Assembly: GCA_016180425.1 (NCBI GenBank)
Contig: JACPBF010000001.1
Location: 341,381 to 405,380 of the forward strand
DNA length: 64,000 nt
Direction of reading: 5' to 3'
From: Elusimicrobiota bacterium
GTDB taxonomy: Bacteria; Elusimicrobiota; Elusimicrobia; 2-02-FULL-39-32
Position numbers: made by a program. Positions 9,401 through 15,400 of this stretch are shown here, in pieces. Positions within the stretch are counted from its first letter, which is position 1. The number at the start of each line of letters is the position of its first letter.

Positions 9401-12400
9401 TAATCATAAAGTAATATGAAGGTACCGTTTGAAACCCCAAGAAAAAATACCTCCTAAAAATGTAAGACTAGCATAGATGCCAAAGACTGGGGTTGCAACC
9501 TTTATTTTTTCTAATAAGACTCCGGATTCAAGAATCATCAAGGACAAAAAACAGAGCAATCCACTTAACAAACCAGCTCCGCCAGCTGTAAAAATTCCAG
9601 AATAACCTCTTTTATCCGCGCACATTCCAATCCATATTCCAGAAATAAAACAGATAATTGAAAGAGGGGCATAGGTCATATTAAAAAAATATTTTAAAAA
9701 AATTGGATAGCTCCATTGAACAAGAGGCTGAACAAAAAAAAGCAAAAGACCAAAAAGTGTTCTTAACTGAGAATCTACATGGAATTTAAATTTCTGTGAA
9801 GGCGAAATTTCAAGAAGAGGCGGAATTAGTGAAGAAAGTAAGGAGGATTGTTTTTGTTTAGCCTGCCATTTTTCAAAAATAAGACCGCAGAACTGACATT
9901 CGCTATTATTTTCATTAGATTGTATTTTGCGGCAAACAGGGCATTCCATAAAAAAATTATATTATTTAATATGCCAGGTCACAAGATTAGGCCTTTCTGG
10001 CAATCCTGGAGGCGGATAAGTATCTAAATTTGTATCAAAAGTAATTTGCGCGCCGCTAAATCCTGAAAGACTAATCCCTTTATTTCTAGTGCCAAAAATA
10101 CGTAAAGTCCGACCGCTGGAACCAGATGAACTCATTCCTGTTGTCCCAGAACTGTCCACAAAATAAACTCCGCTCACATAAAGATCAGACCCTGTTTTAT
10201 TAAAAGCAATAGAATTAGAGGCAATAGCGGCAAATGAGTCTTGAACATTAGCAAAACTGGTTGAACCGATAGTTGCATACTTTAAATGATTATCCATGAT
10301 GATATTCCCTCCACTTGTTCCGCTAGTGCGAATCGAAGCAATGGTTACTCTGCCCCGCACTGTTCCTGAAGAGGTCAATGTGCAATTTTGGCCGTAAATA
10401 ATAAAACCTGTGGAAGGAATAACATAAGTGGTTGTGCCAACCCGAACAGTTCCTGTTGAACTCGCTCCATCATAATAAAATCTTAAAGTTGTATTCTGCG
10501 TTACTTTAACATTAGAGTAAGTGTCAAAATAAGTTCTATCTATCGTAGGCCAGTTCATAGAAGGAACATAGGTATTGTCAGTTCCATTCACAGTGATGTT
10601 CCCGCTTCTAGATCCGCTGCGGTAAAGATCTCCATTAATCACAAGGTTGCCGCTTCCTCCTGTGCTAATATTCCCATTCACAAATACAGGCCCTCCTTGC
10701 ACAAGCGTATTGAGTCCAGTGATGCTCCAGCTCCCATTCACCCACATTCTTCCCATATAACTAGCGTTGCTTGCGCTGGTTGTAAAGTTGCCGTTCCACA
10801 TGGTTCCAAAGGTGGTAAGATCAGAAATAAATTTTATCACCCCTTCAATGGTTTTTTTATTCTGAGGCTGATTGATATCTTGCCCATAAGCGCCTACCGC
10901 AGAAAATGAAATAAAATGCTGATTTGAGTTCGCAGAGATAGTAACTGAGGAAAAGCCTTGGGTATAAAAAGCAGGACTGCGAGTCAGTTGACTGGAATCA
11001 TAGTGATCTGCCTGAAAGGTTTGCGAGAACTGGCGCATGAGATCAGTAATGACATTATTAGCTAAAGTAGAAGAATTCTTTAGTCTTTTATGCATGTCAG
11101 AAGTCTTAACGTCTTGTGAAGTTCTGGTTAAAAGATAGGTTAAAGAAACTAAAACAAAAAGCAAAACATAAACTGTAATAGCCAATGCAAATCCACGTTC
11201 TCCTTTCCTAGTTCTCATGGCCGCCTCTTAATATAAAGAGCTGGCGGCATCACCTCTGTGCTCAGTTGTGAATCCCGCTTGCCGTCATTATTCGAATCCC
11301 GATCCATTAATATTCCAACTGTCACTATTCTATTTCTCTCTGCCAGAGTATCTAACCTTCCATTCCCATTTCCTCCATTAGCCACCGCGTCTATTTCTGA
11401 AATTGAAACTATCCCATCGTTGTTCGTGTCTAAATTTGCTCCGCCTTGGCTTAAAAGATCATTCTTGCTCCCATAAAAAGTAAAGGCTGTGGTAGAAACA
11501 AAATTAACTACCAAAGTCTCTACATGAGACCCCCAGGATTCATTATTCTTAGAATAGTCCAGATAAAGAACTTTTTCACGGGTTGAAAGATAGATGCGCC
11601 ATCTCATGTCCACTTGATTGTCATTATCGTCATCATCATCTTTTAAATCATACCCGATTCTCCACTGGGCAGTGGAAGGTTGGATGGAGGTCGCATCATT
11701 GTCATCATCTGGATCGCTTAAATTAGGGATTCCATCTCCATCAAAATCACTGGTTCGGCTATAGTCTTTATCTGTGATCAGATCTGCGGAAAATAATACC
11801 TCTGTGGAGCTGGCCACATAAAAAAAATCCGCGTTCAAAAGAGAGGTCTCAACTTTATCCATGGAAAATCTTAAATTAACATCTGCTTTAACTTTTGTAT
11901 CGCTCTCTGTAAGAAAACGGGTAGTAGAGGTAAAAAGATTTCCAATCACTAAGGCTATAAATAAAGTAACTGTAATCGCAATCATCAATTCAACCAAAGT
12001 TGAGCCTTTCTCTTTAACCCGGATTTTATAAAAGGAGATAAGAGAGCTGATTCTAATGTAAATTTTAAGTTTAAGGAACATTAAAGGACCATGTGTCTTG
12101 AGAGTTAATTTTGTTATCTGGATTCGTGGCCCAATGGCTCGCCTGAATAGTCACGCTGTGGGATCCACTGGTTAAAACTGAATCTGGAGTGTAACTAACA
12201 GTAATTCCATCCTGTTGAGTTAGCGCAGCGCAAGCAGTTGCAAGATTTCCAACTCCTGAACTTACCACCACAACCCCATCTAAACTTAAAACCACGCTGT
12301 TCAAAATAATCCCACTCTGGTTATCAAAAACCCGGCAGGAAATGGTCGGTGGATTGGAAGCTGCAATACCAATGGGATCTTTATTGGAGATGCTAGGCGC

Positions 12401-15400
12401 TGAGTGATCTGTCATTCCAACGCTAATAGTATAGGTCCATGTACTTCTAGCTTTATAGCCAGCGTTATCTCCTCCTTCCAAAATCATTGTATAACTCCCA
12501 TCGGAAAGAATAGGAGGAAGAGCTGTTATGCTATCTATCCATGTGACATAACCTGTAAGAGTATCATAGGTATGATTGACAGCTGTTGTGCCATTAAATA
12601 AAGTAATCAAATCTGAATTAATATCAGATACAACTTGCCCTGCAGTCAATGGCTGATCTAGGATAGTGGCTCTGACAGTTGGCTGTAGATTTGGGATCGT
12701 GCCAGTAGGAGTCTGCGCAGTGATCGTAGGCGTAGAGAGTTCCCTTATAAAAGTAGTAGGGTTCCAAGGAGAATAGTAAACCGTTTTTGTTGCTTGTCCA
12801 AAAAGCGTATTTGTCCCTTCTACAAGGTTGTTTGTTAGATTAGAGACCGAACAATCAAACTGGCCAAGAAGATCAGCTGAACATGTATCCAGAGTTGGAT
12901 TTGTGGAAGCTCCTAACTTCCAGCTTAAAGTCGCATTAGGAGTTGTTTCGCCAATAATGCGTAGCGGTAGAGAAGCATCCGCTCTTTGAGTAATGCTTGG
13001 TTCAGAAGCTGTTTTAGCGATGGTAAGATTATAAGAATTTTGTTGATGGGTTTGGGCCAAAGAATAAACAATGCTATTTTCCGAAGGGGTACTAACCACA
13101 ATGGTTAAAGTTGCGCCAGCTGCCTTTCCCTCTACTCCAGTGAACTTTTCCCAGGAGATAAGTTGAATATCTTGAAAAATAAGCTCCCCTTTTTTATAGA
13201 GCTTTAAAGTCGCTTCCTTTAAACGCGTATGCGGCTCTTCTGTGATCTGCGGAGTTCCATAAATATCTCTGTAATCTCCATCCCCATTCTGGTTAAAATA
13301 ACGAACCCCAGAATCATAATCATCAATTAGGTTTCCATCAGAATCCGCAAAGTATCGTAAATCTGTTGTTTGGCCATCTGAATCTAAATCCCCCAAATCC
13401 CGGATCGCAAACTTAATATCCAATGTAAATTTATCAAACCTATGAGCGCTCATCAAAGCCCTAAGCTCATTAAAAACCGCAATATAAGGATAGGTAGAGA
13501 CCTGATTGGTCACAGGTCCAAAAGTCCCATTTAAGCCATAATTGGCAGAGGAAGAATTACAGGAAAAAACATAAGGGTAAGGGATATTATTTAATCTGGT
13601 GAAAAATCTTTGGCTAATATTAACAGCATGGGTTTGTTCTCTGGACTTTACAGAGGTGATGGTCACAAATTCCATAACAGAAGCTAAACTCATGACAACA
13701 ATCCCTAAGATAGCGATTGCCATCATCATTTCCACCAAACCAAAACCCTTTTGACTCTCTAGTCCGTATAATTTTTTCGCCTTGGTTCTCACAAGCAAAT
13801 GAATAATTCTACCTAGCCCAAACTTTTCCATAAGAGAGGTCATTCCAGGAAAAAACAAGGAATAAAAAAATTGTTTCCACCAGATTTTTATTTTTTCCTG
13901 CACAAAACCCTCTTGACTAAAAACCAAGATCCAATAGTTAAAAACAGAATCATCCCTAAAGGGAGAAGAATTTTTTTCAAGAACTCCCTTTGCAGCTCAA
14001 AAATCATGCTTAAAGGGAGCTCTGCCACAACTTCTTCCAGATAACGGACATAGTGAGGATAGAGAGCGATCATTGCAATCAAAAGTAAGGTGAGAAAGAC
14101 TAGAATAATCTTTTTAAGAGGCAGGTCGTTTCGATTCATTAGTTTAAGTATAGCCCGCAAGAGAGATTTTTTCAACCACACGAATTGCGCACCTATTGCC
14201 CAATGAATCATCCCATGACTGCCCAATACGCACGCAATCTCTTGCTCTAAAAATTCGCTGACTAAAATTTTTATCTGATTTTCTTAAGGATTTTGGTAAG
14301 ATTTTATAAACTCTTGACTGTAAATAAAAAAAGATTCATAATTGATTTATGTCACGCTTAGAACCCATTCATTATTTTACTGCTGAAGAAGTAAATGTTC
14401 TTATCCCTCACATGGAAAATCATTTGCAAAATTTTTGGGCTTTAAGACAAAATGCTCAGGACATTCTTCATAAGCTGCGCAAAAACCAAAAAGAGCCGGA
14501 AGAATTGAGCCCAAAAGATATTGCCAGCCAGCAGATGAAAACTTCCCAAGCCCATTTTTTGCTGGAACAAGCCAAAAAACAACTGGACGCGATTGTAGAG
14601 TTGGGGGGGACTATTAAAGATTTAGAGATTGGTTTAGTGGATTTTCCACACATGTCTGAATATGAAGAATCTGAAGTTTACCTTTGCTGGAAGTATGGGG
14701 AAAAAAAGGTCCGCTTCTGGCATGGAGTGGATGAAGGTTACGCAGCCAGAAAACCTTTGGCTAAAAAAGTTTCCTCTCATTAAAACGCTGTAAAATTTTT
14801 AACCCGAACAATTTTTAAATGATTTTTGCGGGTGTGGTTCAATGGTAGAATGGGACCTTGCCAAGGTTCAGACGAGGGTTCGATTCCCTTCACCCGCTAA
14901 ATTTTATTTTAACCTGAACATTTCACTTATAGCCTTTTTTTCAACCCTGCTTTTTATATCCTTCAGCCATACAACTGATCTTAAAATAGTTCAAATTTCA
15001 ACCTCAGCCAGACAAGGGGAACTGATTTATCTAAAATCAGAGGTAACTTCTCCACAAACGAACCTTTCTGTAAATTTTTTAGGGAAAGAACTCCCTTGCT
15101 ACCAGATTGCAATTAAAGAAAATAAAAACGAAACTAGTCAAGAAAGTGAACCCACTGTCTGGGAATGTTTTATGGCAATCCCAGCAGACTCGCCTATAGG
15201 AAAACAAACCATAGAACTTTTAGATCAAGGTAAAGCCGTGACGTCTGTTAATTCAGAAATAATCCCGACTGCTTTCCCAACAGAGCCGATCGCTTTATCT
15301 GAAGAGAAAAAGTCCCTGCTTTCCAGAGAAGATCGTCCACAAGATCTAAAAAAAATTAAGCAGGCTCTAAAAATTGAAAGTAAAACTAAAAAATGGGAAA

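Follow-up and report, generated by a model that had tools for sequence, protein, structure and literature searches.

A cassette of three pilin-like genes on the minus strand (positions 9962-13831 of the window, by which we mean the whole 64-kb stretch of DNA analyzed) of an uncultured Elusimicrobia bacterium probably encodes a set of minor pilins, shared among Elusimicrobiota, that primes a type IV filament and forms its tip, the filament being either a pilus resembling T4P or an endopilus resembling that of T2SS. It most likely represents a known component of such machines in a form particular to this lineage. An earlier note, made from the sequence of the window, had proposed minor-pilin-like tip or adhesin subunits at this locus. 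This proposal is supported by the class III signal present in two of the protein families, by the Ig/cadherin-like domains of one of them and by a gene arrangement similar to that of pilV-W-X, which is maintained in about 50 genomes.

Layout and conservation of the cassette

The three consecutive minus-strand genes that had been described are present, and their boundaries agree with the public gene calls on identical contigs. The ORFs span 12071-13927, 11215-12081 and 9962-11218 and correspond to 618, 288 and 418 aa, respectively. The length of the first product depends on the start codon considered: 586 aa from the ATG at 13831 selected by the gene caller, 610 aa from the GTG at 13903 used by NCBI, and 618 aa from the TTG at 13927, up to which the frame is open. 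The genes overlap or abut, the start of the 288-aa gene overlapping the stop of the large prepilin gene by 11 nt and its stop overlapping the 418-aa gene by 4 nt. MBI2118287.1, a sequence annotated as a prepilin-type protein, has 100% identity to the 288-aa protein. The range first assigned to the locus (9404-14226) contains these three genes, but it also takes in two ORFs that do not encode pilins (Table 1).

Table 1. Features of the pilin-like locus, in window positions
Feature	Position	Strand	Basis
2-TM small membrane protein	13888..14226	-	hydrophobic segments; homologous ORFs upstream of the large prepilin
Large modular prepilin, 586 aa	12071..13831	-	N_methyl, TIGR02532, AF2 model
Asp-rich loop region in the head of the large prepilin, residues 144-191	13259..13402	-	motifs, invariant columns
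Tandem Ig/cadherin-like beta-sandwich domains of the large prepilin	12074..13099	-	C-terminal to the pilin module
288-aa prepilin, PilW/GspJ/ComGF-like class (predicted)	11215..12081	-	N_methyl, profile and sub-threshold matches
Asp-rich loops of the 288-aa prepilin	11266..11748	-	motifs, invariant residues, weak EF-hand matches
418-aa ComZ/PilX-like cap pilin (predicted)	9962..11218	-	AF2 fold, Gly9 without Glu5
181-aa zinc ribbon + TM protein	9404..9949	-	sequence, TM segments

About 50 Elusimicrobia genomes carry the triplet with its order unchanged, within unrelated neighborhoods. The order large-medium-cap, with overlapping genes, is invariant both in the ~48 loci with enough flanking sequence and in two distant relatives. 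Across the phylum, the cassette occurs as a single copy, and the 418-aa gene is strictly adjacent to, and co-evolves with, the genes of the two prepilins. A word search with the large prepilin returned 24 matches, all of them from Elusimicrobia or from metagenome sequences; one JGI homologue carries the name 'pseudopilin PulG'.

As had been noted for the pilus ATPase, platform and secretin, searches of the 64-kb window found no gene for an assembly ATPase, platform, secretin or prepilin peptidase, and none was found within 10 kb of the cassette in 52 related loci. As no locus has assembly genes near the cassette, its link to a pilus machine is indirect. In locus L048, the cassette adjoins a canonical (T4a-type) PilA-like gene and two more prepilin genes, and PilD and pilin genes have been reported in related Endomicrobium genomes.

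The 181-aa protein encoded downstream combines an N-terminal CxxC...CxxC zinc ribbon with C-terminal TM helices. Its gene lies 12 nt from the cassette, in the same direction, and is probably co-transcribed with it. It is not a conserved cassette member: this zinc ribbon/TM type occupies the downstream position only in the window and in a 97%-identical relative (L012). A TPR+TM protein is encoded there in eight other loci, and unrelated genes in the remaining ones.

Prepilin signals and predicted folds

Class III N-termini had been attributed to all three proteins. The large and the 288-aa proteins do score above the curated cutoffs of HMMs for the type IV pilin/class III signal (IPR012902), whereas the 418-aa protein retains the Gly only. 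The 586/618-aa protein reaches 27.7 bits with Pfam N_methyl (PF07963; cutoff 21.2) and 25.3 bits with TIGR02532 (cutoff 16.3); with 21.3 bits, the N_methyl match of the 288-aa protein is borderline against the same cutoff of 21.2. The N_methyl match recurs in 17/24 members of the large-prepilin family and in 18/19 of the 288-aa family. Cleavage of the large prepilin is predicted at G29^F30, after a leader of residues 1-29, with Glu34 at position +5, and that of the 288-aa prepilin at G26^S27, with Glu31 at +5. No pilin HMM from Pfam or TIGRFAM/NCBIfam reaches threshold with the 418-aa protein. Its family alignment shows a conserved Gly9 (G9^F) followed by one hydrophobic helix, Glu5 being absent. 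As the subunit that caps tip complexes has no Glu5 (PMC10191384), the lack of this residue is expected in a cap protein.

All three proteins have a single N-terminal hydrophobic segment, and in the prepilins Gly(-1) and Glu(+5) are kept across deep divergence. The earlier note had considered that the motifs might fall inside globular domains. Since the G-x-x-x-x-E motif lies ~3 to 40 residues from the N-terminus in every aligned homologue and opens the long alpha1 helix in the AF2 model of the large prepilin, this is not the case. The leaders are unusually long: 26 residues in the 288-aa protein and, depending on the start codon, 29 or more in the large prepilin.

No named minor-pilin family (GspH/I/J/K, PilV/W/X, ComGE/GF, HpsB/C, Verru_Chthon cassette A-D) is matched above its cutoff by any of the three proteins: the matches, confined to the N-terminal 45-90 residues, score 12-21 bits against NCBIfam equivalog cutoffs of 44-256. 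Such sub-threshold matches are to ComGE, PilV, GspH, GspI and HpsB for the large prepilin, and to PRK10557, ComGE, Verru_Chthon cassette protein C, HpsC, GspJ and ComGF for the 288-aa protein. When compared with PDB, the profile of the 288-aa family matched pilin N-termini (E 3e-4), and by its sequence this protein appears to belong to the PilW/GspJ/ComGF-like class.

A lollipop fold (alpha1 helix, then beta-sheet) is predicted in the AF2 models of the 418-aa and the 586-aa proteins. For the large prepilin, structure prediction had been suggested as a check; the resulting model (pLDDT 84.6) consists of an alpha1 helix (residues 32-80), an alpha/beta pilin head extending to ~231 and, after it, three to four tandem Ig/cadherin-like beta-sandwich domains (residues ~245-586), which resemble Ca-dependent adhesins.

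In the model of the 418-aa protein, the alpha1 helix (8-66) and the pilin beta-sheet (83-131) are followed by a beta-solenoid (~139-393), into which the Gly/Asn/Thr region previously termed beta-helix-like folds, and toward the C-terminus the protein has the conserved sequence YPPPGLPERP (400-409) and then its last strand (409-417). A pilin domain with a triangular beta-solenoid placed before the last strand is the architecture of ComZ and solenoid PilX proteins, and ComZ is the best structural match of the model. The family profile, run against PDB sequences, yielded only chance nanobody matches (E >= 0.018), homology to ComZ or PilX being undetected, and the protein has no NCBIfam or Pfam match. 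The analogy to PilY1 that had been drawn holds only in the sense proposed for cyanobacteria, of a solenoid pilin (PilX) that replaces PilY1; there is no PilY1 homology. A PilY1/PilC tip adhesin was rejected: no beta-propeller Pfam match was obtained, and the models show solenoid and Ig-like domains, not a propeller.

Asp-rich loops and the upstream 2-TM module

The acidic Asp runs that had been reported in two of the proteins are present in the 288-aa and 586-aa prepilins. In the former they are DFDGDGIPNLSDPDDDNDA (112-130), a TSP3-like string, GYDLKDDDDDNDNQVD (144-159), DTNNDGIVSISEID (218-231), with an EF-hand-like DxNxDGxIxxxE pattern, and DRDSNNDGKRDSQ (260-272). In the latter, DLDSDGQTTD (from 148) and NQNGDGDY (from 180) are putative Ca2+ sites. 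Among the columns covered by five (D/N)x(D/N)x(D/N)G motifs are the best-conserved ones of both prepilin families. Residues D112, D116, D123, D125, D129, D148, D150, D158, D218 and G223 are invariant in the 288-aa family; among the 24 homologues of the large prepilin, R144, D145, D163, D170, N182, D184 and D186 do not vary, and D148 and D157 hardly do. As they include invariant columns of both families, the motifs are not due to chance. AF2 confidence in the Asp-loop region of the large prepilin is moderate (65-82).

The label 'TSP3-like' given to these runs is justified as a motif resemblance, but not as a domain assignment. TSP_3 (PF02412) gave no match at E <= 1 in the 19 + 24 family members, and identity with TSP3 repeats was discarded, the likeness being restricted to the DxDxDGxxDxxDxDxDxD string. 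EF-hand_5 matches 7/19 members of the 288-aa family weakly (best E 0.031, below cutoff), and the EF-hand proteins calmodulin and CDPK match positions 192-265 of the family profile with E values of 0.02-0.3; the loop DTNNDGIVSISE of the 288-aa protein fits the canonical EF-hand pattern. As judged from sequence, the DxDxDG-type loops most likely bind Ca2+ and stiffen the exposed heads.

The ORF located upstream of the large prepilin gene (maximal length 112 aa) is absent from the gene calls made on identical contigs. Its likely start is the ATG at 14139 (MNRND...), its hydrophobic segments comprise residues 33-61 and 82-109, and it shares 40 nt with the 618-aa ORF, which is read in a different frame. 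A homologue is present directly upstream of the large prepilin in 19/37 non-redundant loci, as a separate gene in 13 and fused in frame in six. In the fused form, one or two copies of the module constitute the 'leader' of the large prepilin, which in these six relatives has 2 or 4 TM helices, unlike the short, hydrophilic and cytoplasmic leader peptide included in the definition of class III signals (PMC10191384). The 2-TM protein would serve the large prepilin specifically, as a membrane partner and, in some lineages, as a cleavable polytopic leader. It is possible, although doubtful, that the large prepilin represents a class not described before, with a polytopic module (2 TM, one or two copies) ahead of the G^F site. 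When fused, the module would be released in the membrane by prepilin peptidase; elsewhere, as in the window, it is a separate protein encoded upstream. It would escort the bulky tip subunit or act as a checkpoint in its assembly. The module may derive from a duplicated pilin alpha1N helix.

The proposed tip complex and comparable systems

In the complex that we propose, the three proteins would enter the inner membrane via their N-terminal helix, a prepilin peptidase encoded elsewhere would cut after the conserved Gly, and the three alpha1 helices would bundle as in GspI-J-K or PilV-W-X. The 418-aa subunit would cap the filament, since it lacks Glu5 and bears a bulky ComZ-type beta-solenoid. 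Beneath it would lie the 288-aa (PilW/GspJ-class) and 586-aa (PilV/GspI-class) subunits, and major pilins would then join from below. Solenoid and Ig/cadherin-like stalk would form the binding surface of the tip, whose target could be DNA, a polysaccharide or a surface. The tip pilin ComZ, which is GspK-like, binds PilA2, the pilin adjacent to it (PMC6561018). Cyanobacterial PilX carries the same solenoid insertion and forms priming complexes with PilV, PilW and FimT, its solenoid having been proposed to assume the tip-plug role of PilY1 (bioRxiv 10.64898/2026.02.12.705559).

A narrower version of this proposal makes the complex the DNA receptor of a competence pilus, the solenoid cap binding DNA as ComZ does with PilA2. 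The DNA-binding ComZ being the best structural match, the single-copy, phylum-wide cassette, as for housekeeping competence, and the fact that Endomicrobium keeps and expresses comEC, comF, dprA, PilD and pilins, with an unknown route for DNA across the outer membrane, all fit this version. We nevertheless consider it rather unlikely: there is no sequence similarity to ComZ, the lysines through which ComZ binds DNA cannot be placed on the 418-aa protein, in whose mature form Lys is scarce (2.9%), adhesins are the closer likeness for the Ig/cadherin-like stalk and for the Ca loops, and solenoid PilX occurs in both Com and EPS/motility sets of cyanobacteria.

The bulky solenoid and the ~340-residue Ig-like stalk fit poorly in a periplasmic piston, which makes it improbable that the three proteins are GspI-J-K analogues moving or recognizing substrates in a T2SS-type endopilus, or serving exopolysaccharide export like the cyanobacterial Hps proteins. 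The closest solved analogue and cyanobacterial PilX come from surface or competence pili, a T4a-type PilA-like gene adjoins the cassette in L048, and the new Elusimicrobia finds of the TFF survey are Tad systems, not T2SS. An endopilus would nonetheless be consistent with the pilin domain of ComZ being closest to GspK, with the sub-threshold N-terminal matches to GspH, GspI, GspJ and HpsB/HpsC, with the name given to the JGI homologue and with the use of Ca2+ by T2SS major pseudopilins (PMC13081927).

It is highly improbable that the cassette encodes three envelope proteins held by an uncleaved N-terminal TM helix, with a vestigial prepilin motif, in a surface or periplasmic Ca-dependent adhesin complex: the lack of assembly genes near the cassette in any genome, the atypically long leaders and the 2-4 TM helices of six relatives would agree with it, but Gly(-1) and Glu(+5) persist even between deeply diverged homologues, prepilin HMM scores exceed thresholds, Glu5 is missing specifically in the cap subunit, as in real tip complexes, and the 418-aa protein combines a pilin fold with a match to ComZ.

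Several known systems can be compared with the proposed tip complex. Tapirins of Caldicellulosiruptor and DUF3494 ice-binding proteins match the solenoid only; they lack a pilin module and are not filament subunits. GspI-GspJ-GspK of T2SS and PilV-PilW-PilX of T4aP share with the cassette the gene order, the gene overlaps, a last subunit without Glu5 and the N-terminal helices, which match below threshold. The cassette proteins are, however, 2-4 times larger than these counterparts and all below the family cutoffs, and the insertion in GspK is alpha-helical and lies between other strands, whereas that of the 418-aa protein is a solenoid. Streptococcus sanguinis PilA-PilB-PilC (PMC8179133, PMC9934059; summarized in PMC10191384) is likewise a three-subunit tip complex, replacing PilHIJK, with adhesive modules grafted on pilin modules and long leader peptides. 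The grafted modules are vWA and lectin domains in that case, and tandem Ig/cadherin-like domains and a solenoid in Elusimicrobia; S. sanguinis is, moreover, a monoderm and has these genes inside its pil locus, unlike the cassette.

ComZ-PilA2 of Thermus thermophilus (PDB 6qvi; PMC6561018) shares with the 418-aa protein a pilin-like domain whose last strand comes after a large triangular beta-solenoid. Both are missed by pilin predictors, and both genes adjoin those of the pilins expected as binding partners. Identity is 13%, with no HMM-level similarity, the 418-aa protein is ~100 residues shorter than ComZ, and its partners, of 288 and 586 aa, are far larger, with Asp loops and Ig-like domains. 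The cyanobacterial PilX-PilV-PilW-FimT sets (bioRxiv 10.64898/2026.02.12.705559) belong to a different phylum, and sequence homology to them is undetected; they resemble the cassette in that the solenoid PilX is strictly paired with PilV in one locus, and the two Elusimicrobia prepilins match HpsB and HpsC weakly at their N-termini. The Elusimicrobia cassette comprises three pilin-like genes, not four, the FimT/GspH-like subunit being absent; it bears its extra domains on the PilV-like subunit, not on PilX, and adds the 2-TM companion module.

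Prepilin signals, aspartate loops and layout of the cassette

The window has a G+C content of about 38%, and its three consecutive prepilin-like genes are tightly packed, the overlaps between successive genes being 11 nt and then 4 nt. The cassette proteins are identical, or 95-100% identical, to those of Elusimicrobia/Elusimicrobiota metagenome-assembled genomes, the nearest named relative being Elusimicrobia bacterium RIFCSPLOWO2_02_FULL_39_32; the 288-aa protein is MBI2118287.1, from a 659-kb contig of a genome whose proteins include MBI2118286-MBI2118288 (locus tags around HYT97_01505). 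NCBI names the 288-aa protein and the 610-aa version of the large one 'prepilin-type N-terminal cleavage/methylation domain-containing protein' and the 418-aa protein 'hypothetical protein'. Promoter and terminator scans returned signals at background level only.

Genes of the cassette region, in transcription order, and genes of related loci (L numbers) in which the two-helix module is fused to the large prepilin
Feature	Coordinates	Strand	Remarks
112-aa ORF	14226-13888	minus	first in transcription order
618-aa ORF	13927-12071	minus	586 aa from ATG at 13831 (gene callers); 610 aa in NCBI
288-aa ORF	12081-11215	minus	prepilin
418-aa ORF	11218-9962	minus	putative cap pilin
181-aa ORF	9949-9404	minus	last in order; zinc ribbon (CPVC...CQFC) and several TM helices
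Fused gene, L022	1141-3093		one module (= P0015, seen in two samples)
Fused gene, L021	7001-9169		two tandem modules
Fused gene, L028	913-3051		two tandem modules
Fused gene, L044	6821-9160		two tandem modules
Fused gene, L046 and L056	6932-9160		two tandem modules

The earlier note had taken all three genes for prepilins. A class III signal is indeed present in the 586-aa and 288-aa proteins; members of the 418-aa family retain the Gly followed by a hydrophobic helix, but in no case Glu5. Both Pfam N_methyl and TIGR02532 exceed their curated cutoffs in the 586-aa protein, N_methyl is barely over its cutoff in the 288-aa protein, and among homologues this domain is found in 17 of 24 members of the large-prepilin family and 18 of 19 of the 288-aa family. 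The Gly(-1)...Glu(+5) motif lies about 3 to 40 residues from the predicted N-terminus throughout the homologue alignments, each of the three cassette proteins has a single N-terminal hydrophobic segment, and the long alpha1 helix modelled for the large protein opens at the motif. The motif is therefore N-terminal and does not fall within a globular domain.

The acidic runs reported for two of the proteins are equally real: we count five (D/N)x(D/N)x(D/N)G motifs and two poly-Asp runs, and the Asp strings take in the invariant columns of both prepilin families. Their likeness to thrombospondin type 3 repeats is one of motif only; Pfam TSP_3 matched none of the 19 and 24 members of these families. 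A PDB search with the 288-aa family profile matched pilin N-termini (E 3e-4) and, weakly, EF-hand proteins over the DTNNDGIISxxEID region; the Asp loops would serve as structural Ca2+ sites. Against NCBIfam, weak matches of the 288-aa family go to PRK10557, ComGE, Verru_Chthon cassette C, HpsC, GspJ and ComGF, and those of the large-prepilin family to ComGE, PilV, GspH, GspI and HpsB, in both cases far under the cutoffs and over the N-terminal helix only.

The model of the 586-aa protein (pLDDT 84.6) comprises a disordered leader, a helix (32-80), an alpha/beta head with the Asp loops, a short linker and, with very high confidence, C-terminal tandem beta-sandwiches. As these sandwiches resemble the Ig/cadherin-like domains of SiiE, Bap, MpAFP region II and protocadherins, the protein is predicted to be a modular pilin with an adhesin-type stalk.

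A two-helix membrane module upstream of the large prepilin

Gene callers leave out the 112-aa ORF on contigs identical to the window, yet it is a member of a conserved protein family with two TM helices. Of 37 non-redundant loci, 19 have a homologue immediately upstream of the large prepilin (convergent Jackhmmer searches from seven seeds). In 13 of these loci the module has an ORF of its own, whose end lies 11-161 nt ahead of the Gly codon; in the other 6, one copy or two in tandem are joined in frame to the prepilin and make up the 'leader' ahead of G^FGLxE, the fused proteins being 650 aa long in L022 and 712-742 aa in L021 and L056. The first helix of the module bears a weak likeness to pilin alpha1N and often starts with G/K-x-x-x-x-E-Y. 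Since the number of TM helices is even, the cleavage site stays on the cytoplasmic face.

Such a leader does not conform to the description of prepilin leaders as hydrophilic peptides (PMC10191384), and in the literature searched we found no description of the module. We regard the module as a membrane partner dedicated to the large subunit and put forward its role as a cleavable leader as a hypothesis; if real, the split or fused module would challenge the textbook view, in which the leader peptide is short and hydrophilic. A programmed frameshift from the small ORF into the 618-aa ORF at 'aggaaaaaataa' (13888-13900) is not claimed, because the sequence there does not form a canonical X XXY YYZ heptamer and the two ORFs are cleanly separate in 13 relatives. 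Long N-terminal extensions in two high-GC loci (L034 and L042) are rich in Arg, Pro and Gly and were rejected as spurious.

Conservation of the cassette and its genomic surroundings

A pattern scan with one genome per species yielded 52 loci, nearly all labelled Elusimicrobia and a few probably mis-binned. In local HMM searches, the three families occur in the same order, adjacent or overlapping and on one strand, at every locus with enough flank, and the genes around them are unrelated between genomes. In a full HMMER search of 1.84 billion representatives the 418-aa family had 503 relatives, 72 with E under 1e-30; two distant ones (E 1e-30 and 1e-53) retain the three-gene unit together with signal motifs and Asp loops. 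Because gene order is conserved both among the loci and in the two distant relatives, the triplet is an old and co-evolving unit. The 181-aa zinc-ribbon gene was ruled out as a core member, since it is kept only in the nearest relative; in eight other genomes the same downstream position is occupied by a TPR and TM protein of about 200 aa, whose C-terminal membrane part is weakly similar.

Further prepilins flank the cassette in a few Elusimicrobia genomes. At L048 (9609-13346) it is followed by a canonical PilA-like gene (145 aa; N_methyl 36.8 bits) and two more prepilins, and at L034 (6177-8921) by a 914-aa prepilin with CarboxypepD_reg and LTD (Lamin-tail) domains; others lie at L019 (3016-3924) and L060 (886-3768). 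Besides the PilA-like pilin, the extra prepilins include one of 164 aa and others of about 913 aa with CarboxypepD_reg/Lamin-tail domains. In both distant relatives examined, a gene for an ECF-type sigma factor (Sigma70_r2/r4; at 12348-12956 of L064 and 6005-6583 of L065) lies about 1 kb or less from the cassette on the opposite strand.

That the window holds no pilus ATPase, platform or secretin, as first noticed, is borne out by motif scan and Pfam alike: neither the PilB/PilT Walker A nor the PilD GGGD box was matched, and the rest of the window showed no further prepilins or peptidase. At all 52 loci, the 10 kb on either side of the cassette are free of PilB/PilT-type Walker A and PilD motifs. 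Endomicrobium and Elusimicrobium genomes are reported to carry PilD, pilins and Tad-like loci, and Tad systems have been described from Elusimicrobia.

The remainder of the window carries housekeeping, lipid/glycan-modification and radical-SAM genes, to which annotated contigs overlapping its right-hand part added just sugar and radical-SAM genes. An Arn-like cluster (22200-30800) encodes a DegT aminotransferase, a GT2, a 735-aa PAP2 and PMT (ArnT-like) protein, a formyltransferase, an epimerase, a polysaccharide deacetylase and a further PMT_2 protein, which suggests aminoarabinose-type lipid modification. The region 48000-54000 has a G+C content of 0.44-0.45, against 0.33-0.40 elsewhere in the window, encodes a GHMP kinase, subunits of a TPP-dependent E1 dehydrogenase, B12-binding radical-SAM enzymes and sugar epimerases, and may be an acquired glycan or sugar-modification island. 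As tRNA-Gly(GCC) (14828-14898) overlaps the 5' end of the maximal ORF of an M23 peptidase (14842-15801), the peptidase gene must in reality start downstream of the tRNA; a further tRNA, tRNA-Gly(CCC), is located at 16540-16610.

A putative tip complex and its known counterparts

In type 4 filaments, core minor pilins form a tip complex from which assembly begins and whose cap is the subunit without Glu5, and adhesive domains are found grafted onto modular pilins (PMC10191384). For this reason the cassette most probably encodes a priming and tip complex of the GspI-J-K / PilV-W-X type, and the minor-pilin or tip-subunit interpretation of the earlier note was essentially right. The filament may be a T4a-like pilus, a competence pilus or an endopilus like that of the T2SS, and its ligand may be a surface, a polysaccharide or DNA. 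The 418-aa solenoid pilin would form the cap, with the 288-aa and 586-aa prepilins beneath it, and solenoid and Ig-like stalk would provide the exposed binding surface. Two near-invariant proline-rich C-terminal motifs could be inter-subunit docking elements: YPPPGLPE(R/K)P in the putative cap pilin (9995-10015; residues 402-408), just before the last strand, and MPPxLYLKRRP at the extreme C-terminus of the 288-aa prepilin (11215-11250).

Minor-pilin tip complexes set the ligand of the filament and whether a type IV filament assembles at all, and outside model organisms they are too divergent for annotation; two of the cassette proteins have only a generic annotation and the third is labelled hypothetical. 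The cassette would give a whole, mostly uncultured phylum its missing core minor pilins. A lineage-specific and unannotated form of a system of known kind, it comes with an unusual companion module, and its Ca-loop-rich PilW-like subunit and Ig-stalked pilin would be further examples of modular pilins.

The closest parallel to the cap is ComZ, which shares the architecture of the 418-aa protein, a GspK-like pilin domain with a solenoid before the last strand. In ComZ the solenoid is triangular and resembles ice-binding proteins; the protein binds the neighbouring pilin PilA2 and DNA, and steric grounds require its location at the pilus tip (PMC6561018). Searched against PDB sequences, the 418-aa family profile gave nanobody noise only and no similarity to ComZ, so the relationship is at the level of fold and architecture only. 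The solenoid insertion is common to all cyanobacterial PilX homologues, which form priming complexes with PilV, PilW and FimT, and the solenoid has been proposed to replace the PilY1 tip plug (bioRxiv 10.64898/2026.02.12.705559). The cassette would extend this cap architecture past Thermus and cyanobacteria, in line with the view of solenoid caps as a widespread alternative to PilY1.
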